Part shown: positions 1 through 22,957 of the stretch, one piece after another
How the letters are laid out: each line of letters begins with the position of its first letter
Numbering within the stretch: position 1 is the first letter of the stretch
Source of the DNA: an uncultured Gammaproteobacteria bacterium
GTDB taxonomy: Bacteria > Patescibacteriota > Microgenomatia > Levybacterales > GWA1-39-11
DNA length: 64,000 nt
NCBI GenBank assembly: GCA_964427615.1
Contig: CAYRUR010000001.1
Span: 119,303-183,302, forward strand
Direction of reading: 5' to 3'
Translations under genes and position numbers: made by a program
Notes under the pieces: model-generated
What the model saw: the letters and a program-made list of their open reading frames with translations, nothing else
The model's database searches: none
Told to the model about the DNA's origin: nothing

Positions 1-7
1 AAAAACC

Positions 8-289
8 GTGATTATTATCTATCTTATTTTTGTTATTGCAAATACTATGTTTTCGAGTAAAAAAGACATGGAAGGAATGGTAGGACTTTTGATTATGATA
101 GTAATTCTTCTGGGAGGAGTTCTTTTTGCCGGTGGAGGACCATTTCTTATGGAGCAGGTTTTGGATGTTTTGCATAATAAAGACGTAGATTTTGTTCTTG
201 AACGTTTGATGTATTTTCTTTTATTTCCGTTAGGAATGAATGGATTTTTCCTCTTACTGCCTTTTATATTCTCTCAAAAGAAGATTTAA
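8..289 (+). CDS. Small hydrophobic protein; the ORF may continue upstream of the window, and the first in-frame start in view is a GTG
   Basis: Open frame from the window edge encoding 2-3 hydrophobic helices. No recognisable motif. Confidence 0.25.
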   Translation: MIIIYLIFVIANTMFSSKKDMEGMVGLLIMIVILLGGVLFAGGGPFLMEQVLDVLHNKDVDFVLERLMYFLLFPLGMNGFFLLLPFIFSQKKI

Positions 290-322
290 GAATTTCCTAG
301 TAGGATAAGCGCCTATTCTGTA

Positions 323-658
323 CTATGTGTTGCTGGGAGGCGTGATGTTTTCTGGGCTAACTCCTGTAAGTACCGTAATGAAGTTGAAGATGGTGAAAGA
401 AAGAAGAATAAAGACAAGTCCAATGATAGCATAAGTAAGTGTTTTTTTTGCATTAGCTATTTGTTCTTCATCTCCTCGAGATGTAATATATTTGATGCCT
501 GAGAAAATGATGAAAAAAAGAGCTACGACTGCAGATGCGCCAAGTGCGAAGTTAATGACGTTGCTCAAAACGACCCAAATACACGAAAGCGTAGGTACTC
601 CTTCTATTGTGCAGCTGTCCCAACTCAAAGAAGTAAATGAAGCAAAAAAGCTGTCCAT
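323..658 (-). CDS. Small membrane protein with conjugative-pilin (VirB2/TrbC-like) topology, paralog 1
   Basis: It shares a C-terminal block with the next three ORFs: a hydrophobic helix, a charged loop (ITSRGDEEQIANAKKTLTYAIIG), then a second hydrophobic helix. This two-helix hairpin around a charged loop is the VirB2/TrbC pilin architecture. Confidence 0.5.
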   Translation of the reverse strand: MDSFFASFTSLSWDSCTIEGVPTLSCIWVVLSNVINFALGASAVVALFFIIFSGIKYITSRGDEEQIANAKKTLTYAIIGLVFILLSFTIFNFITVLTGVSPENITPPSNT

Positions 659-715
659 ACAATACTATTTATTCTAGTGCAAAGAGAGAAAAAACACAAT
701 ATATGCTAAAAGTCA

Positions 716-1135
716 TTAAGGTCTAGGCTTAATAACGTTGGGAGGATCAGGCTCTGTAAGCGAAGGGATTGTAAGACCAGTGATTCCGTTGCCAGTTATA
801 AGTACAAGAACAAAATTTAATATGACATAGGAAAGTGCAACGAGGACTAAGCCAATAATAGCAGCGATAATAGTTCCTCGTGCTGTTTTCACTTTATCGT
901 CATCTCCTCCTGAAAGAATCCATCTAATTCCTCCATATATTAAGAAGACAAGAGCAATGAGGATAGCGAGCACAAAAGCAGCGTTAACGACAAAACTAAC
1001 CAGTTGTTGCGGGGTTACATTAGTAGGTATGCGAAAGAAAAAATTTAGATCTCTGTCTTCTTGAGCAAAAGCTTGAGGCACGAAAAGTAAAGCAAGAGCA
1101 AGGCTAGCAAAAGTGCTTGATACTATTTTTCTCAT
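716..1135 (-). CDS. Pilin-like (VirB2/TrbC-like) small membrane protein, paralog 2, with signal peptide
   Basis: N-terminal signal peptide (ALALALLFVPQAFA|QE). Conserved block GGIRWILSGGDDDKVKTARGTIIAAIIGLVLVALS flanked by two transmembrane helices. Confidence 0.55.
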   Translation of the reverse strand: MRKIVSSTFASLALALLFVPQAFAQEDRDLNFFFRIPTNVTPQQLVSFVVNAAFVLAILIALVFLIYGGIRWILSGGDDDKVKTARGTIIAAIIGLVLVALSYVILNFVLVLITGNGITGLTIPSLTEPDPPNVIKPRP

Positions 1136-1243
1136 ATCTGTATTTATTAGATCATGTTTTCACGCACTTGTCAAGGAGGAATTGCTTAATGTTATTAGTT
1201 TATAACTGAAAGAGATATAAATATTGTCTAGTATTTTGATTCA

Positions 1244-1585
1244 TCAATTGGATTGAGCACCAAGGTTTGCAACGAAATCAATTCCTAACAGTGTACCTAC
1301 AAATTGTATGATAACAGCACTCAGGAGTATTACTACAATTCCAATAATTGCATATGTCAGTGTTTTACGTGCTTTTTTGACTTTTTCCTCATCTCCTTGA
1401 GAAGTAATCCAAAGAATTCCTCCCCAGATAAGAAATATTAAAGTAAGGATAATGCCAATTACGAAAAGAATGTTTACTCCGAAAGAAACCAGATTTTCTA
1501 AGGTAACTTCAGGCACTCCAGCAGGAGCTTCTACTTCTACCTGCTTTCCTTCCAATCCAGGTACTTTTAGTGCTAGATACTTCAT
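1244..1585 (-). CDS. Pilin-like (VirB2/TrbC-like) small membrane protein, paralog 3
   Basis: Conserved block GGILWITSQGDEEKVKKARKTLTYAIIGIVVILLS between two hydrophobic helices. Confidence 0.55.
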   Translation of the reverse strand: MKYLALKVPGLEGKQVEVEAPAGVPEVTLENLVSFGVNILFVIGIILTLIFLIWGGILWITSQGDEEKVKKARKTLTYAIIGIVVILLSAVIIQFVGTLLGIDFVANLGAQSN

Positions 1586-1595
1586 ATTTTATTTA

Positions 1596-2534
1596 TTATC
1601 GTGAAAATCCAGGGAGTTGTAAAATATCAACTCCAATAATTTCTAGTATAGCAAAAGAAAGAAGAATAAAGATAAACCCAATAATAGCTGAGGTAATTGT
1701 TTCTCTTGCGCCTGCAATTTTTTCTTGATCTCCCCGAGAAGTGAGGATCTTATATCCTGCGTATATAAGGAGTACGATAAGAGAGAATGCGGCTATACCT
1801 ATAATCCAGCGGAAAAGAGAAGATATGATACTGGTAGCAGAGGAAGCATCAACTTCCCCAATAGCGGTTTTACACTTGTGGTCTTCAGTACAAGGGATAA
1901 CATTTTCTGGAACTTTTATAGTAGGGTATAGAAAGGCCGTTGATTCAGGAGGAGGGACATGAATATTCTCCTTTAGATAGGTATTGCATGTCTCTTCTGA
2001 AGTGAAAATACCTTGATTGGAACCGCTGCAAATATTCGTGCATTGGCTATTGATAATCACATAACAGGCATCTCCAGAGGGTGGTTGATTACCAGATGAA
2101 TCAACAAGACTCATAGAGCTTTTCGTAGTGCATTGTCCAATAATATGCTTGTCGTCTCCTTTATTGTAAATATAAGCAGTGAATTTATAGGCTGAAGGAG
2201 GGAGTTCCGTAGAAAACTGAAAAGTAACTGGTTTGGCATCAGTATTACTATACTCCTTTGAGGCGAGCTCTGAGTAGGCAATATTGTTGTAAGTTGCAGT
2301 GCTTCCTCCAGCTATTTTTACAATCCCTTCTTCTTTAGTAGGAAACACTCTTACCTCATATGGCTTTCCGTATTGGGCATTAAAAGATGACTCAATGGTA
2401 CACACTTCCTCTGCAAAAGTTGTTCTTGGTAGAAGGGAAAAAAAAGAAATTACAGATAGAAAAGAAAAGACAAAAAGGTAGGAGAAGACTCTCATCATAC
2501 TATCATCGTATAGCAATAAGGATGTGAAAATCAA
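1596..2534 (-). CDS. Pilin-like protein with a large Cys-rich N-terminal extracellular extension, paralog 4
   Basis: The C-terminal ~90 aa carry the same block (YKILTSRGDQEKIAGARETITSAIIGFIFILLS). It is preceded by a ~200-aa domain with at least 9 Cys and a signal-peptide-like start (MMRVFSYLFVFSFLSVISFFSLLP). The true start is probably the internal Met near 2498. Confidence 0.5.
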   Translation of the reverse strand: MIFTSLLLYDDSMMRVFSYLFVFSFLSVISFFSLLPRTTFAEEVCTIESSFNAQYGKPYEVRVFPTKEEGIVKIAGGSTATYNNIAYSELASKEYSNTDAKPVTFQFSTELPPSAYKFTAYIYNKGDDKHIIGQCTTKSSMSLVDSSGNQPPSGDACYVIINSQCTNICSGSNQGIFTSEETCNTYLKENIHVPPPESTAFLYPTIKVPENVIPCTEDHKCKTAIGEVDASSATSIISSLFRWIIGIAAFSLIVLLIYAGYKILTSRGDQEKIAGARETITSAIIGFIFILLSFAILEIIGVDILQLPGFSR

Positions 2535-2540
2535 CAGCTA

Positions 2541-3965
2541 TCATCGTGAAAGCTTAATGCCTTTCCCCTTTATGGTGTGCAGATACTGAGGATTATTGGG
2601 GTCTGGTTCTATTTTTTTTCTCAGACGGTAGATGATTTGGTCCAGTGCTTGGTCCGTAACTCCTTCGCGACTGACGGTATCACTCCACACAGCTTCAATA
2701 ATCTCATTTTTCTCACATACTTTTTCTTTGTTGATGACAAGAAAACGCAGAAGTCTGAATTCAAGGGGAGTAAGTTGTTGAGTTAGATCCGCATCTCCTT
2801 TAAAAAGAATATTCTTCTCCTCATCATAATAAATTTCTTGTTTCTCCTTTTGTTTAACTGTTTGTATGTAGGATGCGAAAAAAGGAATGGTAAGTGTGTT
2901 ATTTTGCACAAGTTGTAACAGTTGTAATAACTGGATATCCTCATCTTTAACTCCTTTTTTTAGATGTAAAATATGATTTTTTTCATGGGGAGTCAAGAAA
3001 TCCCATAATTCCTCTAGCGCGCGTTGCATTTGTCTTCTTTGTAACAGAAAAGAGGTGAGATCTTCTGCTGGATTTTTTTTAGGAAGCACTGCTTCTACAG
3101 CAATACGGGTGAGTTTGTTATGTCCTCCTGTAAGAGACAGTATCTCTTTTTCTGTTGCATTATCAAGTTTTTTTTCCAGTATTTCTTCTAGATATTCAAT
3201 ACGGTAGGTAATGCCAACAGTGTTATTAATAGGTATAAAAACAGTATTGCCTGCAAGGTACTGATGAAATTCAGCAAACGTCATAGTATCAAGTAGCAAA
3301 TCTAAAGGTCTGGGAAGAGAAAAAATGCATGAAAAACGGTCATGCATAAGTTCTTTTAAAATGGTAAGGTTGATAAAAAACTGCTCTGTAACATCCGGCA
3401 AATATAACTCGAACCTATCAATTAAAAAGACAAGGGTTAACTCTTCCTCAAGCGCAAGGTATTCTACTGCGTCTTTTAGAGCGCGGAATAACACCAGTTC
3501 ATCATCAGCAAGCTGTAGCGCTTTTTTGAATAAGTCATCTACGAAAGCTGCTTCTTTTATTTTTCTGCGTTCTGTTAAAGAATGGGAAAGAGAGATGAGG
3601 AAAAATTTAGTAATGTCTTTCAGGGGCCTTTTATGTACTTCTGAAAAGTCCAAATACACAAAGTGAAATGAAGCAGAGCGTTCTTTCAAGTGGTAATCTC
3701 GTACTGTTCTATTGTAGGCAAGTAATTTTAGGAGGGTACTTTTTCCAGATCCAGGTACTCCGACAATTTGGCATGAAACACCTGTTTTGATAAAGCTCAG
3801 TGCTTTCTCAATTTCTCTGGCCATAGTATCTTCTGGAAATTGTGCTTCAAAGTATCTGTCTTGCATATCCTTATTATAACTGAATTGTGAGGTTGTTGTG
3901 AGGAAAGTATCAAGTACAAAGAATGTTATTTTTTTACAATGTGCGCATGAGAGAAAGATTGACAC
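2541..3965 (-). CDS. AAA+/P-loop NTPase fused to an OmpR/PhoB-type winged-helix DNA-binding domain (putative transcriptional regulator)
   Basis: Walker A GVPGSGKSTLLKLL near the N-terminus. The C-terminal ~100 aa match the OmpR-type trans_reg_C pattern (LTPLEFRLLRFLVINKEKVCEKNEIIEAVW...LDQIIYRLRKKIE...IKGKGIKL). The start may be the internal Met (MQDRYF, ~3866). Confidence 0.6.
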   Translation of the reverse strand: MSIFLSCAHCKKITFFVLDTFLTTTSQFSYNKDMQDRYFEAQFPEDTMAREIEKALSFIKTGVSCQIVGVPGSGKSTLLKLLAYNRTVRDYHLKERSASFHFVYLDFSEVHKRPLKDITKFFLISLSHSLTERRKIKEAAFVDDLFKKALQLADDELVLFRALKDAVEYLALEEELTLVFLIDRFELYLPDVTEQFFINLTILKELMHDRFSCIFSLPRPLDLLLDTMTFAEFHQYLAGNTVFIPINNTVGITYRIEYLEEILEKKLDNATEKEILSLTGGHNKLTRIAVEAVLPKKNPAEDLTSFLLQRRQMQRALEELWDFLTPHEKNHILHLKKGVKDEDIQLLQLLQLVQNNTLTIPFFASYIQTVKQKEKQEIYYDEEKNILFKGDADLTQQLTPLEFRLLRFLVINKEKVCEKNEIIEAVWSDTVSREGVTDQALDQIIYRLRKKIEPDPNNPQYLHTIKGKGIKLSR

Positions 3966-6900
3966 TAGCTAAAACAATATCATATGCTGAATACAGTATG
4001 GAGCCAGCTGAAGTCTATAATGAGTCTCATGTGTCAGAAAGTGGAAAACTTTCCTCTAGTGGTACTTCTCATGAACATCAAAAGGGAAAAAGACCCTTTC
4101 TTCAAGTAGTTGCTCGAGATGGAGAGGCTGTAAGTGCTACAGGACAAGATAGCTTAGATGATGTAGCCGGTCCTGAACCTATTCTTTTTCCAAGCTACCT
4201 TCAAGAAGAACCCTCACCACTTTCTATAAATTCTCAAGAAAAAGGAAAGGTAAAACACGACCTCACACCTCATGAATTATTTGAAGAAGAAAGGTGGGAA
4301 GAATCTTCTTTAGAAGAGAAAATAAGAGAACGTGTGAGTCAAGTAAAAAGTAAAAGAGAAATGGAAAGCTACCTCAGTAAAAATGGTCCTTTAGTAAATG
4401 AAATGCGAAAAGCTATTCAAGAATATGCTAGTTTGCGACTTAATAATATAAGAGAGATAGATCGTATGACCGCAGAACTAACTGGAAAATTTTACCAACA
4501 GCTGGAAGAGGCAATTCATTCTATTGATGGTACTTTACTGGAAGAAGAATGGTTGCAAGAAGCTGAATCAAAACTAAATCCCTTTATTTACGGACTGCTG
4601 CATGCAAAAAATGAAGTAGAGGCATTGAGAATGGAGACAAATGTCTCCAATCCTTCCCCTGAGCCTAGTGGTAGTTTAAGTGCTACTACATCTATGCAGC
4701 CAGAGGAAGAAGGACCTGCGGGTGGTGGGGGAGCTGGTGGAGGAGAAGGAGGCGGCGGAGGAGCTGGTGGAGGATTTGAAGGAGGCTTTGATTATTGGTA
4801 TATCAGCCCTGAAAGAAAAAGGAGAAATCCTGAAGATATAGAGGATTTAGCGGTGGGAATTATGTTTTCAGACCCTCAAAAATGGGGAAGTCTTATGTAT
4901 GTGCGCGAGCGCTATGAAAGTGCTCCAGGAGAACGTGATGGAGCTATTGAAATAGTAGAAAATGGTACAACAAGAATATTAACGCAAGGAGAACATCCGA
5001 TGTTTGATACTGTTTATATACCAAATGAGGGAGAAAGAATTACCTTGAAAGATGGAGATCAAGTTATAGATGAAGAAGTTGGAGCGTCAACTGAACAAGG
5101 TAGAGTAAGAGGAAAGACTACAGAGATAGAAGTTTTAGAAATGAATAGATATATTATGCATGATGGACAAAAATATGAGGTTGGAACTTATGAAATAAGA
5201 AGAATTAAGGGAACTAACGATGTTGTGGATATTGATCCTCGAGATATAAAAGGAAAAATTACAGAGGTATTTAACAAGGATAACTTTTTAAGGTGGGATA
5301 GAGAGCGGGTAGTAACCATTGATATGCAAGATCCTTTTGCTCCGCAAAAATTTTATTCTGAAGTAGATGTGAGTGATCCTAACTGGCTGCGGGGGCATTT
5401 TCCAATGGGACAACTTATGAAAGAAGACAGATGGTGGTTGCTTAAAAATGGAGAAAAAGTTACCGATTTACAGGATGCAACTGTCGACGTGCTTTCTGGA
5501 GCTGGAAATATTCTTAATGGAGGAAAAGAATATAACTTTGTAATGCCTAAAGAATCAGAACTGGTAAAGTATCTCGATGGGGTATATTCTCAGAATACAT
5601 GGACACGAGAATCGGGTGGTATTAGTTATCTTCGTAGGATTTTTGAAATGCCACAAAATTTAAGTGATCACGGAGAATATGATGAGGTTGGGGGAGATAT
5701 TAAAGTTGGGAGTGCTATTAGAAGCATGACTTTGCATTGGTACTACTCGACAGATTTTGAAAAACTAGTGGAGTTATATGGTGAAGATTATACTTTTTTT
5801 AAACGTTCTTATTGGGAAAATGCGCTAAGCAAAGTTGCAAAACAAACAAGTTTTAAAAGTGACTTATCAGAAGAAGAGCTAAGAGCATCAGGTGATTGGG
5901 GTGGGCTTGTTCAATACGATATAAATACCTTTTTCAAAGGGGATGAGGATACTATGGATATCTTTAAAAGAAACAATGATGGGTCATTTGTATTAGAGAA
6001 TGGGAAAAAAGTTGTAGATCCTCAGAAGGCTATGGAAATAGTTAAAAAAATTAACATCTTTGTTCCTCAAAGACCTGACGCAGATAAGTTGGTTGTGAGA
6101 GATGTTTTAAAAAATGGTATTGGAGAATTTTATGGCCTTCAAGATGATAAAGACAACCTCAATTTCGCTGAACTAATCGCTTTTCGGATTTGTTATCCAA
6201 CAGGAATTAATGCCAGGAATGATATTGTACATGCAGGCATGGACGCTTGGGTAAAGTGGCAACGTACTTTTTGGTACCGTAATAAGCAATTGGATGGAGA
6301 TAGAGGAGGATCTGCCGGAAATTACTATAATATGCAAATTTTTAGACAACTAGGAGCAGATTTTTTTACAGGGATTGATACATTAACGGGTAATTCAATT
6401 CTCCAACTTATGGAGGAGGCAGAAAAAGAAGTTAGAAGAGATAGTGAAAATAATAGAGGTGTGAGGACACAAAAAATTTTGGATACCCAAAAAAAGTTGC
6501 GGTTCTCAGCTGATTCTCAGAGACAATTTCTTTCAAATCAAATTAAAAATGCTGCGGGAATGTACGAGAGTCTCACTGACCTAAAAGAAATAAGCTTCCA
6601 AAAATATTCAAAACTCGTTGAGGGTAGACTGGAAATAGATGAAGCAGCGTTTAGTGAAGACCTTAAAGGAGGAGTAATAAAACCTTTGCGTTATATGATT
6701 AGTACTTGGAAACAGCTTGATTTTGGAGAAGAAGAGAGAACAATGATTCCAATAATCAACGAGAAAGGAGAAGCAAAGGAGGGAGAATATAAGACAGTAA
6801 CAAGGCTTGAAGCATATTTTGGAGAAGCAACAGCAGCAGTTTTTAGGAATGATAAGGCCTGGGATTTTGGAGATGCATTAAAAGGGAGAATAGACAGTCT

Positions 6901-7522
6901 TTCCGAGGCGGATTCACGTAAGGCAATAGAAGATTATCTGTCATTTCTTGTTAACCCTAATCCCGAAAAAGATGAAGATAAAGGAAAAGCAGATAAAACG
7001 GCTAAAAAATTAGCATCAGCATACTCTCAAGAATTTATAGGAAAAGATTTTTCAGAACTCACTAGCATTGAGAGAAAGCAACTTTTAACTAAATTAACTG
7101 AAACAAAAGGAATGCTTTCCATTGGAGAAGCAAAAGTAGTAAATGATGTACATAGAACTCATCTTTTTAAATATGCAGTGGCATTTTACGCAGGTACTCA
7201 ATTGCTTGCTCATAGAAAAAATGTTAGCCGCAATTATTTTGAAAAATACGACATTATAGAAAGTCGTACCTTTTTACGTCTTCTTGATTCTATTCCTGGT
7301 AAAGCAATTTTTGATGAAGATGATCTGAGAAATACGCGAGTTGATGGAAATTTCTTTGGAAAAGATATGTATGGAAGGGACTATATGGAGTTTATTAAAG
7401 CACTGTCTAATACTACGACAGGTAAATTATGGACTGGTCACTTAATACTTTTGCTTTTAGGTGCAATGAGAGAAGCTTTTGGAGAGTCTACAGAAGAACT
7501 TACAAAAGGAATTGCTGCTTAA
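3923..7522 (+). CDS. Very large (about 1170-1200 aa) soluble protein of unknown function with an internal poly-Gly tract
   Basis: Uninterrupted 3.6-kb ORF with no transmembrane segments and acidic, coiled-coil-like N-terminal regions. Low-complexity GPAGGGGAGGGEGGGGGAGGGFEGGF tract near nt 4715-4790. A start at 3923 would overlap the upstream gene by 43 nt, so the ATG at 3998 (MEPAEV) is the more likely start. Confidence 0.6.
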   Translation: MLFFYNVRMRERLTLAKTISYAEYSMEPAEVYNESHVSESGKLSSSGTSHEHQKGKRPFLQVVARDGEAVSATGQDSLDDVAGPEPILFPSYLQEEPSPLSINSQEKGKVKHDLTPHELFEEERWEESSLEEKIRERVSQVKSKREMESYLSKNGPLVNEMRKAIQEYASLRLNNIREIDRMTAELTGKFYQQLEEAIHSIDGTLLEEEWLQEAESKLNPFIYGLLHAKNEVEALRMETNVSNPSPEPSGSLSATTSMQPEEEGPAGGGGAGGGEGGGGGAGGGFEGGFDYWYISPERKRRNPEDIEDLAVGIMFSDPQKWGSLMYVRERYESAPGERDGAIEIVENGTTRILTQGEHPMFDTVYIPNEGERITLKDGDQVIDEEVGASTEQGRVRGKTTEIEVLEMNRYIMHDGQKYEVGTYEIRRIKGTNDVVDIDPRDIKGKITEVFNKDNFLRWDRERVVTIDMQDPFAPQKFYSEVDVSDPNWLRGHFPMGQLMKEDRWWLLKNGEKVTDLQDATVDVLSGAGNILNGGKEYNFVMPKESELVKYLDGVYSQNTWTRESGGISYLRRIFEMPQNLSDHGEYDEVGGDIKVGSAIRSMTLHWYYSTDFEKLVELYGEDYTFFKRSYWENALSKVAKQTSFKSDLSEEELRASGDWGGLVQYDINTFFKGDEDTMDIFKRNNDGSFVLENGKKVVDPQKAMEIVKKINIFVPQRPDADKLVVRDVLKNGIGEFYGLQDDKDNLNFAELIAFRICYPTGINARNDIVHAGMDAWVKWQRTFWYRNKQLDGDRGGSAGNYYNMQIFRQLGADFFTGIDTLTGNSILQLMEEAEKEVRRDSENNRGVRTQKILDTQKKLRFSADSQRQFLSNQIKNAAGMYESLTDLKEISFQKYSKLVEGRLEIDEAAFSEDLKGGVIKPLRYMISTWKQLDFGEEERTMIPIINEKGEAKEGEYKTVTRLEAYFGEATAAVFRNDKAWDFGDALKGRIDSLSEADSRKAIEDYLSFLVNPNPEKDEDKGKADKTAKKLASAYSQEFIGKDFSELTSIERKQLLTKLTETKGMLSIGEAKVVNDVHRTHLFKYAVAFYAGTQLLAHRKNVSRNYFEKYDIIESRTFLRLLDSIPGKAIFDEDDLRNTRVDGNFFGKDMYGRDYMEFIKALSNTTTGKLWTGHLILLLLGAMREAFGESTEELTKGIAA
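4714..4791 (+). repeat. GGn/GGA low-complexity tract encoding a poly-Gly linker inside the 1199-aa ORF
   Basis: ggtgggggagctggtggaggagaaggaggcggcggaggagctggtggagga: short direct GGN/GCT repeats that are slippage-prone. Confidence 0.6.
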
Positions 7523-7570
7523 AAGAGAGATAGAGAGTCTATTCTTAGATTATCTTTCTTCTTCTCTTGT

Positions 7571-9397
7571 CTAGATCGGGCTCCGTTCTCTTCTACTAGA
7601 TCTACGATTTAGTAGTCTTCTTTTTTCATCATCTGTAAGATTTGGCAACCTTCTTATTTCCTCCTCAGTATATGGCTGCAAATCATCTCGCAGACCTAAC
7701 CCCCAATTTCTTAATGAACTGCTATTGCTGCGTGAAAGACGTTGAGCTAACGGTCGCTTTATTCTTTCATCATATGCAGTACTGAGAGGGCCTGTAGCTA
7801 CACCCTCTTTATTTCTTGCAAAGAGCACATTCTTAGGGATTCCTGCAAATGGTTTTACTACTTGTGCTCCAATCCCTAAGCTGTTTGGAATAGCTTGTGC
7901 ATATTTAAGTGAAGGAGTATTAAGCTTGTCTTTGATCATGTTAATAACTTCTGGGGTGATAAGAATAGTTGCCATACCAAAAAGAGCTGATAATGCTTCT
8001 GGAGCACCGGGATTACCAATAAGTGGAGGAGTGAAGTACTCTTCTCCTGGAGCAAAGGCGCTCATAAGCACCTTTGCAATCAAAAACATAAATATAGTTG
8101 CTGGAAATACAAGTAAGTACGTGATGATATATTTTAGCCATGCTCCGAAACCTAGACCTGAGTTAGGAATAATTCCCATGGCAATCCAAAAAGGAGAGAG
8201 TATAACTGCTAGAAGTACTCTGATGTAAGACGTAAGGAGTCGGAACCAAATTCGTACAAGTGTTATAAATATAGCTATAGATACAATGAAAAACATAATC
8301 ATTCCTCCTAATATCCCGGCCACACTACCAATAACATTGACGTCCTCGGTACAATCCCACATCGCATCAAGACTAATACCAGTAACCCGGGAGATAATAC
8401 CTCCATCTGATTCAATATGTTGAATTACACAATCTTGGTATACTGGACTGACTGACTGAGGTATGAGAAATATAATACGAGTAACAGTTTGGGTAATGGT
8501 ATTATGAAAAATTCCTAAATTATTTATTACATTGGAGATTACTTCTCCTGTACCCAAAGCTATCTTAAAAGGTATTATGAAAAATCCTATTCCGAGTTCG
8601 CTATCGGTGAAAGGAAGGGGAAGATTGTATAGGTGATTGGCAAAGCCAAAAGGAGTGTTAAAAGCATATTTAAGCATATTTCCTAATGCTCCTGATTCAT
8701 CAAGGGGTGAGAAAGTAGCAAATAAGAGCAGTAATAACACCCACATCATGTCTATCAGAAATCCTGCAATGGGAAAGGAAAAGGTGACAAGCACAAGCGT
8801 AATAATAATTTTAGGAATTTGATTTTGAACAGCCATTACTGCTCTATCATTGAGTTTAAATCTGAACATAATGCCAAGGCCAATGATAACTACAATAAGG
8901 CTAAAAAGAAGATACACAATATTTCTAAACTGTATCCAAATCTTCTGAATAGGTTTTAAGCCTTCAAACCCTATTCCTCCCTCTTCTGCAGCTTGTGCTT
9001 TTTTAGAAAACCCAAAGTTGTGAGAAAGGTAGGTGGCGTAATCATTGCTAGATATAGGGAAGTTGTACGTCATTCCTATAAGTTGTCCCATTTGATTGAC
9101 AGCACCACCATTATTATCTACATAGGTAATCTTCTTTGTTTGAGGATCAACTCCAAGGCATTTTCCGTTAGGTGAAATAGGATCTGCACCTATTACAAAA
9201 CAAGTATAAGTAGAAAAGAACTCAATGAATAAGCTCTGGGTGAATGTGTGGAGGTTTTTTGGTACCGATGCGTCTACATTGGGCTCCAGGTAGCTTGATG
9301 ACTCTATGTTTTGTGCGCTCACTGGAAAAACAAAAAACTTAGTAAAAAGAAGCGTAAAGACAAAAAAGGTCAAAATGGGCAATAACAACTTTTTCAT
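7571..9397 (-). CDS. Polytopic membrane protein with an N-terminal extracytoplasmic domain and a basic C-terminal tail; possible VirB6/TrbL-like channel component
   Basis: Signal peptide, then a ~130-aa Cys-containing soluble region, then at least six predicted transmembrane helices, then an Arg-rich disordered C-terminus (RRLLNRRSSRRERSPI). This architecture matches VirB6-family proteins. No diagnostic motif was seen, so the assignment is topological only. Confidence 0.4.
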   Translation of the reverse strand: MKKLLLPILTFFVFTLLFTKFFVFPVSAQNIESSSYLEPNVDASVPKNLHTFTQSLFIEFFSTYTCFVIGADPISPNGKCLGVDPQTKKITYVDNNGGAVNQMGQLIGMTYNFPISSNDYATYLSHNFGFSKKAQAAEEGGIGFEGLKPIQKIWIQFRNIVYLLFSLIVVIIGLGIMFRFKLNDRAVMAVQNQIPKIIITLVLVTFSFPIAGFLIDMMWVLLLLLFATFSPLDESGALGNMLKYAFNTPFGFANHLYNLPLPFTDSELGIGFFIIPFKIALGTGEVISNVINNLGIFHNTITQTVTRIIFLIPQSVSPVYQDCVIQHIESDGGIISRVTGISLDAMWDCTEDVNVIGSVAGILGGMIMFFIVSIAIFITLVRIWFRLLTSYIRVLLAVILSPFWIAMGIIPNSGLGFGAWLKYIITYLLVFPATIFMFLIAKVLMSAFAPGEEYFTPPLIGNPGAPEALSALFGMATILITPEVINMIKDKLNTPSLKYAQAIPNSLGIGAQVVKPFAGIPKNVLFARNKEGVATGPLSTAYDERIKRPLAQRLSRSNSSSLRNWGLGLRDDLQPYTEEEIRRLPNLTDDEKRRLLNRRSSRRERSPI

Positions 9398-9477
9398 AAG
9401 GTAGGAGAATTTTTAGTATTCATAGATAAGTATGGAGAAAAAAGAGGAGTAAAGTCAAGAATGGGAAAAGACTTTCG

Positions 9478-10083
9478 TTGACACTTTTTCCTATAATAGA
9501 GTATAGTATCAAAAATATGGTAAAAGGGGCTTTATTTTTAAGTATTGTAACCTTCTTCTTTTTGGTACAGCCTATTTTTGCCCAAAATACGCTAGATGCC
9601 ACAGAAAGTGCTGCGCCTTATGCCTCTGGTTCTGCAGTTAAAGAAGTTTCTGTTCAGTACGAATTGCCTTATCCAGGACTTTTACCAGATCATCCTCTTT
9701 ATTTCTTGAAAATGACACGGGATAAAATTGTGGGTTTATTGATCAATGATCCTTTAAAAAAAGCGGAATTTAATCTTTTAAACGCTGATAAGCGGATGCA
9801 TGCAGGAGTACTGCTAGTAAAAAAGAAAGAATATGATCTGGCAGTTACTACTATTTCTAAAAGTATCAATTATGTTGAAGAAGCACGGGTAGCGGAAATG
9901 AAGGCAAAGCAAGCCGGAAAATACACGCCTCCTTTTGAATCAAAGCTTGAAACAGCACTGGCAAAACATACAGAACTAACACAGATGCTTGTACAAAACA
10001 TGGACAAAAAATATGTGCAACAATTTAAAAATGAGTTGAAAAGAATGCGAGAATTGCAAAAAAGAATGGGAAAAAAGCATTAA
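9478..10083 (+). CDS. Secreted or membrane-anchored hypothetical protein
   Basis: Signal-peptide-like stretch (MVKGALFLSIVTFFFLVQPIFAQN, probable start near 9517) followed by a helical, Lys-rich region. Unknown family. Confidence 0.45.
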   Translation: MTLFPIIEYSIKNMVKGALFLSIVTFFFLVQPIFAQNTLDATESAAPYASGSAVKEVSVQYELPYPGLLPDHPLYFLKMTRDKIVGLLINDPLKKAEFNLLNADKRMHAGVLLVKKKEYDLAVTTISKSINYVEEARVAEMKAKQAGKYTPPFESKLETALAKHTELTQMLVQNMDKKYVQQFKNELKRMRELQKRMGKKH

Positions 10084-10336
10084 CTCTTCTATTTTGAGCC
10101 TGCCTTTTTGAATTGTCCTTTGGTTATTTATTTTCTTTGTTGAAAAGTGCATATGAGTTTCTCCATAGAAATAAGAGGAAAAATGATTCAAAAGAATAAT
10201 AAAAATGTACGTTTTTAGTTGCCAGAAATTGCTTTTTCTTTGTCAGAGCTCTTACATAATCAAATTGAAGCTAAAGCAAAAAATGATATAGTTTGTTATA
10301 TTGACTTAACAGATTTAGTGTTCTACTATTGTCTCT

Positions 10337-10352
10337 GACACTAGATGTAAAA
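10337..10352 (+). promoter_or_regulatory. Possible NrdR-box-like site upstream of nrdR-nrdJ
   Basis: acactagatgtaaaaag resembles the first half of the NrdR box consensus (acaCwAtATaTwGtgt). The match is weak and partial. Confidence 0.2.
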
Positions 10353-10417
10353 AGAAAATTTACATTTGGTAAAAGCTCTTTAATTAAGAAAGAAGCACCT
10401 TTAAAAATCGTAATACT

Positions 10418-10867
10418 ATGCTTTGCCCTTATTGCAGAAAAAATGGAACTGAAGTCGTTGAGACACGAATTGCCGAAGACGGAACAAATATTAGAAGAAG
10501 AAGATCATGTTCTTCCTGTGGCAAACGGTTTACTACTTATGAAAGAATTGAGAATGTAACATTAGTAGTAAAGAAAAAAGACGGAAGACGTGAGCAATTT
10601 GATAGAGATAAGTTACGAGCAGGAGTGATCCGGGCATGTGAGAAAACAAGTGTTTCAATTGATAAAATTCATGATATAGTAGATGTTATTGAAAGAGAAC
10701 TACGTAACGGTGAATCAGTAGAGGTTGAAAGTAGAAAGATAGGACAGCTTACGGCTGTTAAACTGAAAAAAGTAGATAAGGTAGCATATATTCGATTTGC
10801 AAGTGTTTTTAAGCGTTTTGTTGATTTAGACGATTTTGAGAAAGAATTAAAAAGATTATTAAAATAA
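10418..10867 (+). CDS. nrdR: Transcriptional repressor NrdR (Zn-ribbon plus ATP-cone)
   Basis: N-terminus MLCPYCRKNGTEVVETRIAEDGTNIRRRRSCSSCGKRFTTYERIE is a canonical NrdR zinc ribbon. It sits immediately upstream of an RNR gene. Confidence 0.9.
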   Translation: MLCPYCRKNGTEVVETRIAEDGTNIRRRRSCSSCGKRFTTYERIENVTLVVKKKDGRREQFDRDKLRAGVIRACEKTSVSIDKIHDIVDVIERELRNGESVEVESRKIGQLTAVKLKKVDKVAYIRFASVFKRFVDLDDFEKELKRLLK

Positions 10868-10868
10868 T

Positions 10869-13283
10869 ATGAAACTTGAAGGATTATCAGAAAAAGTATT
10901 TTTAGACAGATATGCTCTCAAAGATAAAAAGGGCAACCCTATCGAAAAAGACCCTCGCCAGATGTGGAGGAGAATTGCTAAGGCAGTAGCAGAGCAAGAA
11001 GAAGGAGAAAGTAAAAAGATTTGGGAAAAAGAATTTTATGAGGCTCTAAAGGGTTTTAAGTATGTTCCTGGCGGAAGAATCCATGCAGGCGCGGGAACTG
11101 GGTATCAAGTTACTTATTATAATTGTTTTGTAATTCCTTCTCCAAAAGATTCACGAGGTGGTATTATTGATACCCTCAAGCAAATGGTTGAAATTATGGC
11201 ACACGGTGGTGGTGTTGGTATCAACCTCTCCTCTCTTCGTCCTCGCGGTTTTCGAGTTAAGAAAGTAAATGGATTCTCCTCTGGTCCTTGTAACTGGGCA
11301 GAGCTGTTCTCTATTGCTACCAAAGATATTATTCAACAGGGTGGTACTCGTCGAGGTGCACTTATGTTAATGCTTTGGGACTGGCATCCTGATGTAGAAG
11401 AATTTATTACCGTAAAACAAGACTTACTCCGTATCAATGGAGCTAATCTTTCCGTATGTGTGTCTGATAAATTCATGGATGCAGTTGAAAAAGATGGAGA
11501 CTGGGATCTGGTTTTCCCTGATAAAGATGATCCAGATTATGATGAAAAATGGGATGGAGACCTAGAGGCTTGGAAAAAGCTTGGTAAAAAAGTAATAGTA
11601 CACAAAACAGTAAAGGCACGCAAGATATGGGATCTGATTGCTGAAGCTGCTTGGAAATCAGCAGAGCCAGGAGTAGTCTTCATGGAGCGCTACAACAAGC
11701 TATACAACAACTGGTACTGGAACAGCATCAATTGTGTAAATCCATGTGGAGAAGAAGGACTTCCACCATGGGGAGTATGTAACTTGGGTTCTATCAACCT
11801 TTCTGCTTTTGTCAAAGGGTATGAAGTAGATAAAAAAGGAGAGTTTGATTTTGAGACATTAAAGAAAGTAGTGAGAGTAGGAGTGAGATTCCAAGACAAT
11901 GTAGTGAGTATGGATCCATATATTTTTGAAGGAATTCGCAAGACACAGCTTGAGGGAGAAAGAAGAATTGGTCTTGGTACCATGGGTTTGGGAGATGCAC
12001 TAATTAAATTACACTTACGTTATGGTTCACCTGAAGCATTGGAGTTTATAGATGAAGTGTATAAGCTTATTAGAGACGAAGCATACAGAGCGTCATCTGA
12101 GATTGCCAAAGAAAAAGGAGCATTTCCAAAGTTTGATAAAGAACTTTTCCCACAAGGAGCATTTATCAAGCAACTTCCAAAAGACATCCAGAAGATGATT
12201 AAAGAGCAAGGGATTCGCAACTCGCTTCTTTTGATGCAAGCACCAACAGGGTCAATCTCTTTGATGGCTAACACCACTTCTGGTATAGAGCCGGTATATG
12301 AATTTGAATTTATCAGGAGAAGTAGAATTGGGGAGCATGTAATCAGACACCATTTGTATGATGAATGGTACAAAGTACATGATAAAGAACTGGAAGAAGG
12401 AAAAATACAAAGACCGGATTACTTTGTCTCTGCAAATGATCTTACTCCAGAAGAGCATGTGGAAACACAGGGTATCATCCAAAAATATGTGGATGCTTCT
12501 ATCTCAAAGACAGTAAATGCACCTAAGACGCATACTGTAGAGGATGTAAAAAGACTATATACCTTAGCTTACAAATTAGGTTGTAAAGGGATAACCTATA
12601 TGAGAGAAGGATCACGAGTCGGCGTATTAGAAAGAAAAGAGGACAAAAAAGAAGAAGTAAAGGAAGAAATAAAGCAATTACCACCTATTATGCGCAGGCC
12701 AATGGTCATGCAAGGAGTAACATATAAAACGCAAACACCACTGGGGAGTACCTTTATTACCATCAATGTAGACAAGGATGGTAATCCTTTTGAAGTCTTT
12801 ATTAATGCTGGGAAATCAGGTTCTGATGTCATGGCTATGGCAGAGGCATTAGGGCGCATGATTTCATTTGCTTTAAGAATGCAGGGTCCTATTGATTCAC
12901 GGGAAAAAATAGAAAGAATTATTGCCCAAATGACGGGTATCGGAGGTGCAAGAACAGTTGGCTTTGGTCCTAATAGAGTGAGATCTTTGCCTGATGCTGT
13001 AGCCAAGATCCTCGCTGATCACTTTGAATTTAAGGTAAATGGAAAAGTTACTGACGTAAAAAAGAATATAAAAGCTGATGCTATGGAGCCAGCTAGTCTT
13101 ACAAATGGACACGCAGCAGCAAATGAACATGCAGTGATGGCCTTACAACCATCTTTATTGCACGCTGAATCTGCTTCTTCTACAAATGATAGTTTTGATA
13201 TCTGTCCTGATTGTGGAACATCAGGTTTAGCACACGAAGAAGGTTGTATAAAATGTTACTCATGTGGATATTCCGCATGTTAA
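10869..13283 (+). CDS. nrdJ: Class II (adenosylcobalamin-dependent) ribonucleotide reductase with a C-terminal Zn-ribbon
   Basis: NrdJ-type N-terminus (VFLDRYALKDKKGNPIEKDPRQMWRRIAKAVA). Active-site region NPCGEEGLPPWGVCNLGSINL. C-terminal CPDCG...CIKCYSCG zinc ribbon. Length 804 aa. A start codon 2 nt after the nrdR stop indicates an operon. Confidence 0.85.
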   Translation: MKLEGLSEKVFLDRYALKDKKGNPIEKDPRQMWRRIAKAVAEQEEGESKKIWEKEFYEALKGFKYVPGGRIHAGAGTGYQVTYYNCFVIPSPKDSRGGIIDTLKQMVEIMAHGGGVGINLSSLRPRGFRVKKVNGFSSGPCNWAELFSIATKDIIQQGGTRRGALMLMLWDWHPDVEEFITVKQDLLRINGANLSVCVSDKFMDAVEKDGDWDLVFPDKDDPDYDEKWDGDLEAWKKLGKKVIVHKTVKARKIWDLIAEAAWKSAEPGVVFMERYNKLYNNWYWNSINCVNPCGEEGLPPWGVCNLGSINLSAFVKGYEVDKKGEFDFETLKKVVRVGVRFQDNVVSMDPYIFEGIRKTQLEGERRIGLGTMGLGDALIKLHLRYGSPEALEFIDEVYKLIRDEAYRASSEIAKEKGAFPKFDKELFPQGAFIKQLPKDIQKMIKEQGIRNSLLLMQAPTGSISLMANTTSGIEPVYEFEFIRRSRIGEHVIRHHLYDEWYKVHDKELEEGKIQRPDYFVSANDLTPEEHVETQGIIQKYVDASISKTVNAPKTHTVEDVKRLYTLAYKLGCKGITYMREGSRVGVLERKEDKKEEVKEEIKQLPPIMRRPMVMQGVTYKTQTPLGSTFITINVDKDGNPFEVFINAGKSGSDVMAMAEALGRMISFALRMQGPIDSREKIERIIAQMTGIGGARTVGFGPNRVRSLPDAVAKILADHFEFKVNGKVTDVKKNIKADAMEPASLTNGHAAANEHAVMALQPSLLHAESASSTNDSFDICPDCGTSGLAHEEGCIKCYSCGYSAC

Positions 13284-14444: not shown

Positions 14445-15017
14445 TTGGTTTTTAATATTTCTATTATGCCTATTTATACAAAAACTGGAGACAAAGGAAA
14501 AACAGCATTACGGACTAATGAGCGGGTATGGAAAGATTCAGTACGCGTTGAAAGTTATGGAACAGTTGATGAGCTTAATGCGTATTTAGGGGTAGTGCTT
14601 TCTTATATTGATACAGATGCAAAAAAAGAATTGCGTTATGTAGCAGATCTAGTGGTTACAGTACAAAATGATTTGTTTTTTATTGGTTCTTATATTGCCA
14701 ACCCTGGTGAGAAGCGGGACCTGACAGTGCTTAACAAGCATATTACGTATTTTGAGGATGAGATAGATGGTATGACAGAGCAAATGCCAGAACTTAAAAA
14801 TTTTATTCTTCCAGGAGGAGGAAAGGTAGGAGCATCCTTGCAGTACGCACGTACTATTTCCAGAAGAGCGGAGAGAAAATTAGTTTCTTTGCACAAGGCA
14901 GAAGGGGTTGAAAAAGAAATTTTGCAGTATATAAATAGACTTTCTGACTTATTATTTACGTTGTCTCGCTTTGCCAATTACGTAGAAAAAAAGAAAGAGA
15001 TAATTTGGTCTTTGTAA
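14445..15017 (+). CDS. pduO: ATP:cob(I)alamin adenosyltransferase, PduO type
   Basis: N-terminus MPIYTKTGDKGKTALRTNERVWKDSVRVESYGTVDELNAYLG is the PduO-type ATR signature. Length about 190 aa. Confidence 0.85.
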   Translation: MVFNISIMPIYTKTGDKGKTALRTNERVWKDSVRVESYGTVDELNAYLGVVLSYIDTDAKKELRYVADLVVTVQNDLFFIGSYIANPGEKRDLTVLNKHITYFEDEIDGMTEQMPELKNFILPGGGKVGASLQYARTISRRAERKLVSLHKAEGVEKEILQYINRLSDLLFTLSRFANYVEKKKEIIWSL

Positions 15018-15256
15018 CGGGTGAATGAGGTGTAAATCCTCAGCTATGCCGTAGCTGTGATCTTAGGTAAATACTAAGAAAGTCAGATCCCCGTCTGTTT
15101 CAATATTTAATTTGAGAACAGGAAAAGTCTTTCGAGTCCATGTACCATGCGGTACAGGACCATGCGCTGAATAGTGCATGGCAAGAGCAATTTTGTATCC
15201 TTATCCTGCCTTCTCGAAATTCTGTTACAGAACAAAATGAGAAGGTTTTTTTATTG
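15018..15256 (+). promoter_or_regulatory. Cobalamin riboswitch-like leader, copy 2, with a rho-independent terminator as expression platform
   Basis: GAGGUGUAAAUCCUCAGCUAUGCCGUAGCUGUGAUCUUAGG parallels the copy-1 core (GGUG.AAAUCC...GC...CCG.AGCUGU). A B12-box-like AAGUCAGAUCCCCGUCUG follows. The terminator ccttctc...gagaagg plus TTTTTTT lies at 15209-15252, just before the ATG at 15265. Confidence 0.5.
15209..15252 (+). terminator. Intrinsic terminator (riboswitch expression platform)
   Basis: Stem CCTTCTC/GAGAAGG enclosing the sub-hairpin ttctgttacagaa, followed by a 7-T run. Confidence 0.55.
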
Positions 15257-17713: not shown

Positions 17714-18460
17714 TTACTCGTCGTTGAGTTGGATGCTGAGTAGGGCGGGATTGAGAACACCGCCGTTCTCGTTAGCTAGCTCGCCCTCGTTCCCGATTTG
17801 GGTGTCGAGGTTGTGCCAACGACGGAGCTGTTCCCCGTGTTTCCAGCAACGAGCGAGCATTGTGACAGCAGCGCCGAACATGAAGCCTGTGATGCCTTCA
17901 AGGTCCGCTTCGTGCGATGTAGCGGAAGCTACCTCTTCGAGGGTCTTCCCGTTAGATATCTCGACCTGCATGAGTCGCGCCCATCGTTGAGCGTATGTGA
18001 TAACGGCACCGCCGTAAGGATCTCGGTTGGCCAGCATGGCTTCTTCCCAAGCATCTGGGTTAGACTCCTCCATAGGAGGAGCACCTTTGAGCTTCGCCTC
18101 CAGAGCATTGCGCTTGGCTTTAGCTTGCGCCTCGTACTCAGCTTGCAGTTCCTGGCGTCTGCGCTCGTTCTTGGCTTCGACCTGGTTGTCATTCTCCTTC
18201 TCCTCGTCGGTAAGGACAAGGTTTGGGTAAGGACCGACGTTGGGGTCGATATAATGATGGAGCGCCCGATGCCAATCCCGAAAGATAAGATCAGGACTAG
18301 AGTCCTTGCGAACACTAACCCTTACCTCATTGAAGTCGAACGTAATGAGGCACCCATCTTCCTCGGCTGATAGAGCGATAGCTTCAACGATGGTATTGCG
18401 GATATGTGCTCCTGCACCAACCTCAAAGACAATTTCCTTCTTTCGCCAAAAGTTACTCAT
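17714..18460 (-). CDS. Hypothetical protein encoded on a compositionally foreign (GC-rich) segment
   Basis: 248-aa ORF in a stretch visibly far more G+C-rich than the rest of the window. GGAGG RBS 8 nt upstream of the ATG. Acidic, Ala/Glu-rich helical protein of unknown family. Spurious antisense ORFs in this stretch fit high GC. Confidence 0.55.
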   Translation of the reverse strand: MSNFWRKKEIVFEVGAGAHIRNTIVEAIALSAEEDGCLITFDFNEVRVSVRKDSSPDLIFRDWHRALHHYIDPNVGPYPNLVLTDEEKENDNQVEAKNERRRQELQAEYEAQAKAKRNALEAKLKGAPPMEESNPDAWEEAMLANRDPYGGAVITYAQRWARLMQVEISNGKTLEEVASATSHEADLEGITGFMFGAAVTMLARCWKHGEQLRRWHNLDTQIGNEGELANENGGVLNPALLSIQLNDE

Positions 18461-20858: not shown

Positions 20859-22712
20859 TTAGAGTGAAAAAGTATAAATTTTGGAGTTGCTTACAACATA
20901 TAACGTGTGATTTGGTTCATCTACTGCAAATGAGGTGGCATTTTTAAAAATATCTGAAGTATATTGTTTGGCAAACGAACCACTTTTTTGGATAGATACC
21001 ATTCGTTTTCCAGAGGGGTCAAGTACATAAAGATTTGCATAATCAACATCGGTGTAAATACTGCTTCCTTTGCCAATAGAGGTGGGAAGCCCTTGTATAG
21101 AGAAAGCATCTTTGCTGCCTCGTGTATATTTTTGAATACTTCCATCATCTAAAAGAACCCAGACAGAGGCATCAATACTAAATGATACGGGATTTTTAGA
21201 AAAATCAGGTTCTTGGCTAAAATAATCAGTGTCATTATATGCTTCAGGAATAAATTTTTTAATAGTATTTTGGCGCGTATCCAGCACGTAAATGTTATTT
21301 CCAAAGGTACTAATACTTTTTGGAGCTTGTAGGTCTTCTATAATTGTTTCGTTTTCTTTTTCATTCTTTTCTTGTTTGATAACAGAGTCATTAGTAAGCA
21401 TGTAAAAATAGTCTTCATCTGCACTAATATCTACCACCCGTGTTGATTCACCTTCAAAAAATTGTTCTATTTCTCCGCTTTTAGAAAGTAAAACAGCAGA
21501 AGTATTATTTGTTCCTGTGGCAATAATACTGCCCCCTTTAATAGTAATATGCCCAACTTGTTTTATTTTTTCCTGAGATGGATCAAAAAAGAGTTTTTCT
21601 CCTCCCAGTTGTTCTCCTCCTCCTAGTTTTTGAATCTCAGCATTTACTTTTTCAAGGAGGGTATCTAATTGTTCTCGTTCAGGAGTGCCTTGAGGGAATT
21701 TGTCCTGTTCTGCAAGGAGTATTTTTTTGGCTTCATACAGTGTTTCAAGAGCAAGTGGTTTATTTAAAGATGCAAGCGCTATTGCTTCATCCAACTGTTG
21801 CTGGGTAGGTGCAAGAATATGGGCAAACTCTTCTTGTAACTGTTTTTTTTCTTTATTCATGTTTTCATGTATAATTCCGCCTATTAATATACTTAAAAGA
21901 ACAGCGATACCAATACCAATAAGCACATTTTTTTTCAAAAGCACCTCTTTTTTTGGTATATGAAGGTTTTTGATAAAAGAAGAAAGAGTAGCAGGATGAG
22001 GTATGCGCTCTTTAAGGGTGGTGATAAAAGATGGTTTTAGGGCTTCTGGTTTTTCTTGTTTTTGCTCTTCGTCTTTTTCTACTTCTTCGAAAGTTTCCTC
22101 ATCTGCTAAATAGCTTGCATCGTGGCTTTGAATTTGCAGGACTATAGCTGCTTCTGTGCCTTGTGGTTCTGTACTGATAAGCGGAGCAAGTGTTTCTGCA
22201 ATATCCAGGATGTTGATAGTTTTGGTAAAGGTTTGATAGAGGGAGGGATCTATCTTCTGGGCAAAGCCTGGCGTTTGCAGAAAAAGCATATCGTTGTGAC
22301 GTAGCTCTCCTGAAAAGCCAGTAATGCTTTGTGGTTCTGCTTCTGCAATAATTCCAATAGTCTCATCTCTTTTTAAGAGTACTTTTCCGGCTGATGAGAT
22401 AATAATATAAGCAACTCCTTCAATGATCGTTACCAAAACAAGTGAGTGCTCTATTTCAGCAGGGATAATAGATACAGTATTTTCTACTGCTTGTTTTATG
22501 GTAGATAGATTTTTTTCGTCAATTGCAAAGTATTCTCGTTGTAGTTTTTCAAGGACTTCTTTTCCTAAAGTAGTGGGTTGGATATCTGATTCACCCTGTT
22601 TTTTAAGGCTGACTACAACAAACACATGTAACGTGGAAAAAGCCTGCGCCCAGGTTTTTTCTGTTGTATTTGAAACGAGTTTTTCGTGAACAATAGTATA
22701 GTTTTGGTTCAT
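20859..22712 (-). CDS. Hypothetical bitopic membrane protein with a C-terminal beta-propeller-like repeat region
   Basis: One central transmembrane helix (VLIGIGIAVLLSILIGGII), a coiled-coil segment, and repeated YVLD / YMLTND / YVVSN beta-strand motifs. Unknown family. Confidence 0.5.
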   Translation of the reverse strand: MNQNYTIVHEKLVSNTTEKTWAQAFSTLHVFVVVSLKKQGESDIQPTTLGKEVLEKLQREYFAIDEKNLSTIKQAVENTVSIIPAEIEHSLVLVTIIEGVAYIIISSAGKVLLKRDETIGIIAEAEPQSITGFSGELRHNDMLFLQTPGFAQKIDPSLYQTFTKTINILDIAETLAPLISTEPQGTEAAIVLQIQSHDASYLADEETFEEVEKDEEQKQEKPEALKPSFITTLKERIPHPATLSSFIKNLHIPKKEVLLKKNVLIGIGIAVLLSILIGGIIHENMNKEKKQLQEEFAHILAPTQQQLDEAIALASLNKPLALETLYEAKKILLAEQDKFPQGTPEREQLDTLLEKVNAEIQKLGGGEQLGGEKLFFDPSQEKIKQVGHITIKGGSIIATGTNNTSAVLLSKSGEIEQFFEGESTRVVDISADEDYFYMLTNDSVIKQEKNEKENETIIEDLQAPKSISTFGNNIYVLDTRQNTIKKFIPEAYNDTDYFSQEPDFSKNPVSFSIDASVWVLLDDGSIQKYTRGSKDAFSIQGLPTSIGKGSSIYTDVDYANLYVLDPSGKRMVSIQKSGSFAKQYTSDIFKNATSFAVDEPNHTLYVVSNSKIYTFSL

Positions 22713-22948: not shown

Positions 22949-22957
22949 ATATACTAA

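Follow-up and report, generated by a model that had tools for sequence, protein, structure and literature searches.

An origin-proximal cassette of four VirB2-like pilin genes, one with a cysteine-rich extension, in a Microgenomatia genome

A large part of bacterial diversity belongs to the Patescibacteria, which live attached to host cells, and in the one species tested genetically, Southlakia epibionticum, a type IV secretion system (T4SS) with its pilins is essential for the host-attached lifestyle, the predicted pilin series of the T4SS cluster being itself essential (Wang et al, 2023; PMC10633639). Across the phylum, 441 arrays of 2–11 genes for VirB2-like pilins have been described in 383 assemblies, most abundantly in Microgenomatia and Saccharimonadia; an array was defined as two or more pilin genes that are tandem or one gene apart, and the identity between copies averaged 25%, with a maximum of 54% (Quinonero-Coronel et al, 2025; PMC12102498). 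Here, we analysed one such array at positions 323–2,534 of a 64,000-nucleotide (nt) stretch of contig CAYRUR010000001.1 (positions 119,303–183,302; assembly GCA_964427615.1), hereafter the window, from a bacterium placed in the Microgenomatia and probably Levybacteria-like. Its genes were originally predicted, from the letters alone, to encode conjugative-pilin-like (VirB2/TrbC-type) paralogs tied to a T4SS.

The array falls within the published definition, with four adjacent genes, gaps of 10–108 nt and 38–45% identity, and an overlapping contig places it near VirB4, PrgI-like and TraC-like genes; such arrays are described as often lying near VirB4 together with PrgI/VirB3 and TrsD-like genes (PMC12102498). 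We consider it probable (about 0.72) that the four genes form a VirB2-like pilin cassette of a chromosomal, origin-proximal T4SS, and that their products are assembled into a multi-subunit surface structure with the large domain of the first subunit outside. The kind of system is already published, and what we add are incremental refinements: a fixed four-slot cassette, a cysteine-rich, fast-evolving ectodomain on the slot-1 subunit and an upstream regulator, none of which we found described in full-text literature searches or in term searches of PMC12102498.

Shared pilin module and slot-specific orthology

The four consecutive open reading frames (ORFs) on the minus strand were found where the original prediction had placed them (Table 1); we refer to them as slots 1 to 4, slot 1 being the first gene. 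For slot 1, the frame stays open as far as a TTG at 2534, which would give 312 amino acids (aa), and the exact 300-aa protein that starts at the ATG is present in public collections. In agreement with the prediction, the only part common to the four proteins is a C-terminal module in which a polar loop joins two helices, with 38–45% identity to the first sequence and 17 invariant columns in the four-protein comparison; module DNA is 69–79% identical over 89 nt between three copies. The loop carries a conserved motif, S-x-G-D/N followed by A-R/K-x-T. The longer motif that had been quoted for this region matches the 113-aa paralog exactly and the other three merely approximately. The N-termini do vary, but two paralogs (139 and 300 aa), not one, have a signal-peptide-like start and two have none; likewise, the long paralog does carry a Cys-rich extension, but with 8 Cys rather than 9, all of them in the ectodomain.

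All four proteins exceed the gathering cut-off of the Pfam family T4SS_pilin (PF18895; 26.6 bits), scoring 51.9 (111 aa), 44.0 (139 aa), 46.8 (113 aa) and 38.9 bits (300 aa), so the similarity of the module is not a chance one, and PF18895 is the sole family for which any of them passes a curated cut-off. Resemblance to TrbC/VirB2 (PF04956; cut-off 27.9) is weak but repeated: the 111-aa and 113-aa proteins reach 18.7 and 13.0 bits, respectively, and the 139-aa and 300-aa proteins have no match at an E-value ≤ 1. The best NCBIfam match for all four, and the closest named family, is NF045849, the Mbov_0395 pilin-like conjugal transfer protein of mycoplasma integrative and conjugative elements (ICEs), although the scores (38.8, 20.5, 30.5 and 39.8 bits) all lie under its cut-off of 40. 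Among plasmids we obtained a single weak match, to a protein that is encoded on a megaplasmid of Pontibacillus and bears the annotation "pilin-like conjugal transfer protein", and a module profile run against PDB sequences matched no pilin and returned noise alone.

Each pilin contains two hydrophobic segments separated by a K/R-rich loop, in line with the topology expected at the outset. In the 120 proteins of the 30 related cassettes introduced below, the loop has 2.5–3.9 K/R per 16 residues vs 0.6–1.5 in the 25 residues before helix 1. AlphaFold2 (AF2) modelled helices at residues 24–59 and 64–98 of the slot-4 protein from a 14-sequence alignment (mean predicted local distance difference test score, pLDDT, 78.5) and, from the single sequence, at residues 218–253 and 258–293 of the slot-1 protein (pLDDT ~80). 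Hydrophobicity and charge distribution fit a predicted hairpin with both termini outside (N-out/C-out).

To place the four genes among their relatives, we retrieved 79 loci by scanning one genome per species, labelled mostly Levybacteria/Levyibacteriota, Microgenomates, Woesebacteria, Shapirobacteria or Saccharibacteria, and ran the module profile against their six-frame ORFs. The set carries an ascertainment bias. Many of them come from metagenome-assembled genomes labelled "uncultured Gammaproteobacteria bacterium"; these labels look wrong, because in gene content and synteny the genomes are patescibacterial. Arrays ranged from 1 to 9 genes, some being cut by contig ends. Exactly four same-strand pilin ORFs were present in 30 of the 79 loci, for most of them in the layout of the window, with a first gene that is long (median 446 aa) and, after it, genes for ~111, 136 and 104 aa. 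Within these 30 loci, 113 of the 120 cassette proteins had their best cross-genome match in the same slot, and mean identity was 0.37–0.50 within a slot, compared with 0.25–0.33 between slots and 0.31 within one locus. The slot-2, slot-3 and slot-4 genes of the window likewise have their best cross-genome matches in their own slots, the slot-4 orthologues being at most 60% identical. Since the loci were anchored on slot-1-type modules, the orthology of slots 2–4 is not an artefact of selection. Taken together, the same-slot best matches and the within-slot identities indicate that the paralogs are old and specialised, which favours, of the possibilities raised in the original prediction, that of distinct subunits.

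Linkage to the T4SS core

The window itself has a low G+C content (~0.37) and contains housekeeping genes (NrdR, ribonucleotide reductase, GroEL, LepA, MurJ, PcrA, tmRNA and tRNAs). The decisive linkage of the array to a T4SS is off-window. Using the 111-aa pilin, we found a 35-kb contig (L081) whose first 10,658 bases are 100% identical, in reverse orientation, to window positions 1–10658, and which continues 9.7 kb past window coordinate 1. This extension encodes, in order, a 232-aa polytopic protein convergent with the array, a 490-aa PrgI(VirB3)-like protein, a 209-aa TraC-like protein (PF26593) and a 756-aa VirB4 (matching DUF87, AAA_10 and P-loop_TraG, with a Walker A motif at residue 285), followed by four genes for proteins with a hydrophobic segment at the N-terminus and by dnaN. 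The PrgI-like match is weak, and the PrgI-like/TraC-like/VirB4 cluster begins ~0.5–0.9 kb beyond the pilin cassette. The array therefore abuts a T4SS core beside the replication-origin region, the same arrangement as reported for Microgenomatia, where T4SS genes lie near dnaA/dnaN (PMC12102498). Sister genomes also have a P-loop_TraG/AAA_10 ATPase 2–5 kb after the cassette, together with a PrgI-family match (26.5 bits; cut-off 27). No relaxase family was matched among the genes of the 9.7 kb examined, a result obtained without a dedicated relaxase search.

The ATPase to which the array had originally been tied, at 26.3–28.7 kb of the window, does exist, but it is a VirD4/TraD-type coupling protein and not a VirB4, and we ruled it out as the partner of the array. 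It matches TrwB_AAD_bind, DUF87, TraG-D_C and T4SS-DNA_transf in Pfam, as well as TraD and CD1115 VirD4-like families, and DotL is its sole PDB match. None of the 14 window ORFs of at least 500 aa matched a VirB4 family. Coupling-protein homologues are near-universal in Patescibacteria, at about two per genome, and are rarely linked to virB4 (PMC12102498). Adjoining the coupling-protein gene is a cluster encoding a SpoIID-domain protein, a bacterial-PH membrane protein and a 617-aa protein, and in Woesebacteria- and Shapirobacteria-type genomes this cluster lies directly beside the pilin array (13–15 loci). This gene order hints that the coupling-protein island and the pilin island serve one system and suggests a functional link between the two.

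The slot-1 ectodomain and the proposed assembly of the pilins

Between its signal peptide and the pilin module, the slot-1 protein of the window carries an ectodomain of 189 aa with 8 Cys. Across the related loci, slot-1 N-terminal extensions measure 337 aa and contain 10 Cys at the median, and a signal-peptide-like sequence opens 90% of the slot-1 proteins, whereas the pilin module itself is without Cys. The fusion, originally thought unusual, proved to be recurrent in this lineage: a pilin with an ectodomain was present in 52 of the 79 loci and was the first gene in 44, figures that carry an upward bias. Its sequence is highly variable. Of 58 extensions, 17 clustered into one family and 26 were singletons, the others forming seven small groups, and within the 17-member family the median identity was 31% for the ectodomain, compared with 53% for the module, 50% for the putative regulator encoded upstream and 45% for a 608-aa neighbour. 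By these identities, the ectodomain is the fast-evolving part of the system. The ectodomain of the window is a singleton; an exhaustive phmmer search against 1.84 billion representatives returned the protein itself and three weak partial matches to Ig/TIG-like repeats, and a profile of the 17 related ectodomains matched signal peptides alone. A single-sequence AF2 model was mostly β-strand at low confidence (pLDDT < 50) and unusable. The domain is predicted to be extracellular and is probably disulfide-bonded, which would fit a role in host contact.

At the other end of the slot-1 protein, the tail after helix 2 is near-invariant across loci (GVDIL.[LI]PGF[SG][RK]). This tail is absent from the slot 2–4 pilins of the window and might be a processing or assembly signal.

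Under the reading that we prefer, the pilins would insert into the membrane N-out/C-out, the signal peptides of slots 1 and 3 would be cleaved, and slots 2 and 4 would have their short, acidic N-tails translocated directly. A VirB4-driven machine would then extract the pilins and assemble them into a surface structure of several non-interchangeable subunits, in which the slot-1 subunit would display its disulfide-bonded ectodomain outside, most plausibly in contact with the host cell. Transcription of the cassette would be controlled by the P-loop/winged-helix protein encoded upstream.

The main rival explanation, which we regard as unlikely though by some way the strongest of the alternatives, is that the four proteins are membrane-resident accessory subunits of a monoderm T4SS translocon that makes no pilus, with the slot-1 ectodomain spanning or anchoring to the wall, much as VirB2 is needed for transfer independently of the pilus in diderms. 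Two considerations weigh against a surface filament: an observed filament or pilus for PF18895-type proteins is not reported in the published work that we found on the family, a 2025 review calling a pilus an "intriguing possibility", and systems of the mating-pair-formation type FATA (MPF-FATA), to which Patescibacteria VirB4 is related, are generally without pili (PMC12102498, PMC10633639). Four conserved, non-interchangeable subunits would suit a complex of fixed stoichiometry as well as a filament, and the nearest named relatives are the pilin-like proteins of mycoplasma ICEs. The recurrent, if weak, similarity to TrbC/VirB2 speaks for a pilin, however, and a fast-evolving, Cys-rich ectodomain behind a signal peptide looks like an exposed surface ligand and not like a structural spacer.

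Much less probable is that the array serves antigenic or host-range variation through interchangeable major pilins, alternately expressed or recombined, as proposed for the VirB2 paralogs of Bartonella and Anaplasma. The original prediction raised this possibility, the same speculation and analogy had already been made for Patescibacteria arrays (PMC12102498), and neighbouring genes have indeed diverged to 38–45% identity. Such variation through interchangeable copies is disfavoured because the paralogs are old, predating the genomes compared, and because we found in the array neither long, nearly identical repeats of DNA nor invertible segments as a basis for gene conversion or switching, the one repeat seen being the conserved module, in diverged direct copies. 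The paralogs do not fit a recent lineage-specific duplication, each being closer to the same-slot gene elsewhere than to its own neighbours, with the four slots kept in order in 30 loci. Moreover, each slot has N- and C-terminal features of its own, and it is mainly in the slot-1 ectodomain, and not in the set of paralogs, that species vary.

That the genes encode unrelated small membrane proteins, holin-like or generic two-transmembrane ones whose pilin match reflects hydrophobic composition, is very improbable: the fold is generic and short proteins of this type do attract many weak matches (MatE, Yip1 and, for one paralog, Phage_holin_3_3 at 15.3 bits, the sole holin score, vs a cut-off of 28.4), but PF18895 alone is passed, and by all four, the conserved loop motif is polar rather than compositional, and VirB4 and PrgI genes stand in physical linkage with the array, both in the genome of the window and in sister genomes.

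Extending the preferred reading of an assembled surface structure, we tentatively propose a heteropolymeric T4SS surface organelle whose VirB2-like subunits, of at least four kinds, would be ancient and unable to replace one another, in which a slot-1 pilin-fused adhesin would set host specificity through its fast-evolving, disulfide-rich ectodomain and a dedicated NTP-binding winged-helix regulator would gate expression; in this full form the proposal is possible rather than likely. To our knowledge, characterised conjugative pili are built from a single major pilin. If the proposal were true, the slot-1 fusion would supply an adhesin missed by surveys of the phylum, in which no adhesins, including PrgB-like ones, were detected (PMC12102498).

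Neighbouring genes and comparison with known systems

Table 1. Features of the window and of its immediate extension. Coordinates are window positions unless stated otherwise.
Feature	Coordinates	Strand	Description
232-aa polytopic membrane protein, C-terminal part	1–289	+	full gene 10370–11068 (−) of L081; convergent with the array
Slot-4 pilin	323–658	−	111 aa; no signal peptide; Cys pair C16, C26 directly before helix 1
Slot-3 pilin	716–1135	−	139 aa; cleavable-looking signal peptide MRKIVSSTFASLALALLFVPQAFA followed by QE; Pro-rich C-tail
Slot-2 pilin	1244–1585	−	113 aa; no signal peptide; acidic 30-aa N-tail; K/R-rich loop ITSQGDEEKVKKARKT
Slot-1 pilin	1596–2498	−	300 aa; ATG start at 2498 per public gene calls; ORF 1596–2534
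Slot-1 C-terminal tail	1599–1634	−	follows the PF18895 module; GVDILQLPGFSR
Slot-1 ectodomain	1845–2411	−	residues 30–218; followed by the PF18895 module
Slot-1 signal peptide	2412–2498	−	residues 1–29
Putative regulator	2541–3866	−	441 aa per public calls; ORF to GTG at 3965; 42 nt upstream of the slot-1 pilin
~1190-aa protein	3947–7522	+	acidic, with Gly-rich stretch; between regulator and 608-aa protein, a conserved slot
608-aa secreted/polytopic membrane protein	7571–9397	−	signal peptide and at least 5 transmembrane segments
Cobalamin riboswitch	14975–15112	+	Rfam RF00174, 36 bits
Tad4-domain ORF	17714–18460	−	PF25186, 97 bits
SpoIID-domain, bacterial-PH membrane and 617-aa proteins	20859–25365	−	Pfam; adjoins the coupling-protein gene
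YciC-like membrane protein	25398–26219		listed ORF
tRNA-Ile	26143–26215	−	anticodon TAT
VirD4/TraD-type coupling-protein homologue	26259–28658	−	799 aa; two N-terminal transmembrane helices
tRNA-Ser	29239–29328		
LAGLIDADG_3 homing-endonuclease-like ORF	29374–30147	−	between the tRNA-Ser genes
tRNA-Ser	30219–30306		

The putative regulator combines a Walker-A P-loop NTPase region (GVPGSGKST) with a C-terminal OmpR/PhoB-type winged helix (Trans_reg_C, 69.2 bits); matches to AAA_16, nSTAND and NACHT all fell below threshold. In 29 related loci, the first pilin gene is preceded on its own strand by a gene for a homologue, at a distance of at most 153 nt in 21 of them. Scans for promoters and terminators performed no better than on shuffled sequences (17 vs 12.2 ± 4.6) and were not used.

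Beyond the regulator, the ~1190-aa protein has no Pfam, NCBIfam or PDB sequence match and has homologues in 8 loci. In 8 further loci inspected, a gene for ~800–1000 aa without a Walker A motif stands beside the homologue of the 608-aa protein, in four of them between this homologue and the regulator. In related genomes, all loci checked for it have a fast-evolving gene of 800–1200 aa, lacking Walker A, next to that of the 608-aa protein. The 608-aa protein itself occurs near pilin arrays in 39 of the 79 loci, where two different gene orders are seen, and it lacks a match among Pfam, NCBIfam or PDB sequences. Our guess is that it is a candidate channel component with a VirB6-like role, which is reasonable because VirB6 is hard to detect in Microgenomatia (PMC12102498). 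On the other side of the cassette, the 232-aa polytopic protein, also without a Pfam, NCBIfam or PDB sequence match, carries, near residue 54 (residue 86 where one ORF was called longer), an HExxH motif shared by all eight homologues found in related loci; these lie directly after the cassette in 5 loci, 2.4 kb beyond it in one and with a partial array in two. The protein could be an intramembrane metalloprotease, possibly one that processes the pilins.

Elsewhere in the window, we noted several further features. The cobalamin riboswitch follows a gene for a PduO-type cobalamin adenosyltransferase and a DUF4430/ECF-S-like pair, and precedes a 466-aa ORF whose C-terminus is Cys-rich and which matches no family. 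The Tad4 domain, a type I Thoeris inhibitor, occurs here in a bacterial chromosome context, and a LAGLIDADG_3 homing-endonuclease-like ORF lies between two tRNA-Ser genes. Finally, the tRNA-Ile gene overlaps the start of the listed ORF for a YciC-like membrane protein, which must therefore start further downstream.

Compared with the TrbC/VirB2/TraA pilins of diderm T4SSs, the pilins of the window are likewise small, with two hydrophobic helices, a basic loop and a predicted N-out/C-out topology, they have VirB3- and VirB4-type neighbours and they show weak similarity to PF04956. They differ in scoring below the threshold of that family, in their monoderm host and in comprising four conserved, different subunits, one of which carries an ectodomain of 190–550 aa. 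T- and F-type pili use one major pilin, and in T-type pili a VirB5-type protein sits at the tip. We found no VirB5-family protein among the annotated neighbours of the array, although no dedicated VirB5 search was made.

The Mbov_0395/MMCAP2_0565 proteins of mycoplasma ICEs share with the window pilins a monoderm host and a presumably MPF-FATA-type context, but they are encoded on mobile elements with relaxases, whereas the window locus is chromosomal and origin-adjacent. The VirB2 paralogs of Bartonella and Anaplasma are, like those of the window, several divergent tandem genes in a host-dependent bacterium. They are, however, regarded as products of tandem amplification for antigenic variation or interaction with the host surface (PMC12102498), whereas the window copies are ancient, slot-specific orthologues.

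The closest counterparts are the VirB2-like arrays of other Patescibacteria, with the same PF18895 family, tandem divergent genes, VirB4, PrgI and TraC/TrsD-like neighbours and a position near dnaN/dnaA. Nothing essential differs between these arrays and the locus described here, which is a typical member, and the specialised slots, the diverging Cys-rich ectodomain and the regulator provide testable candidates for host contact and host specificity in the Microgenomates group.

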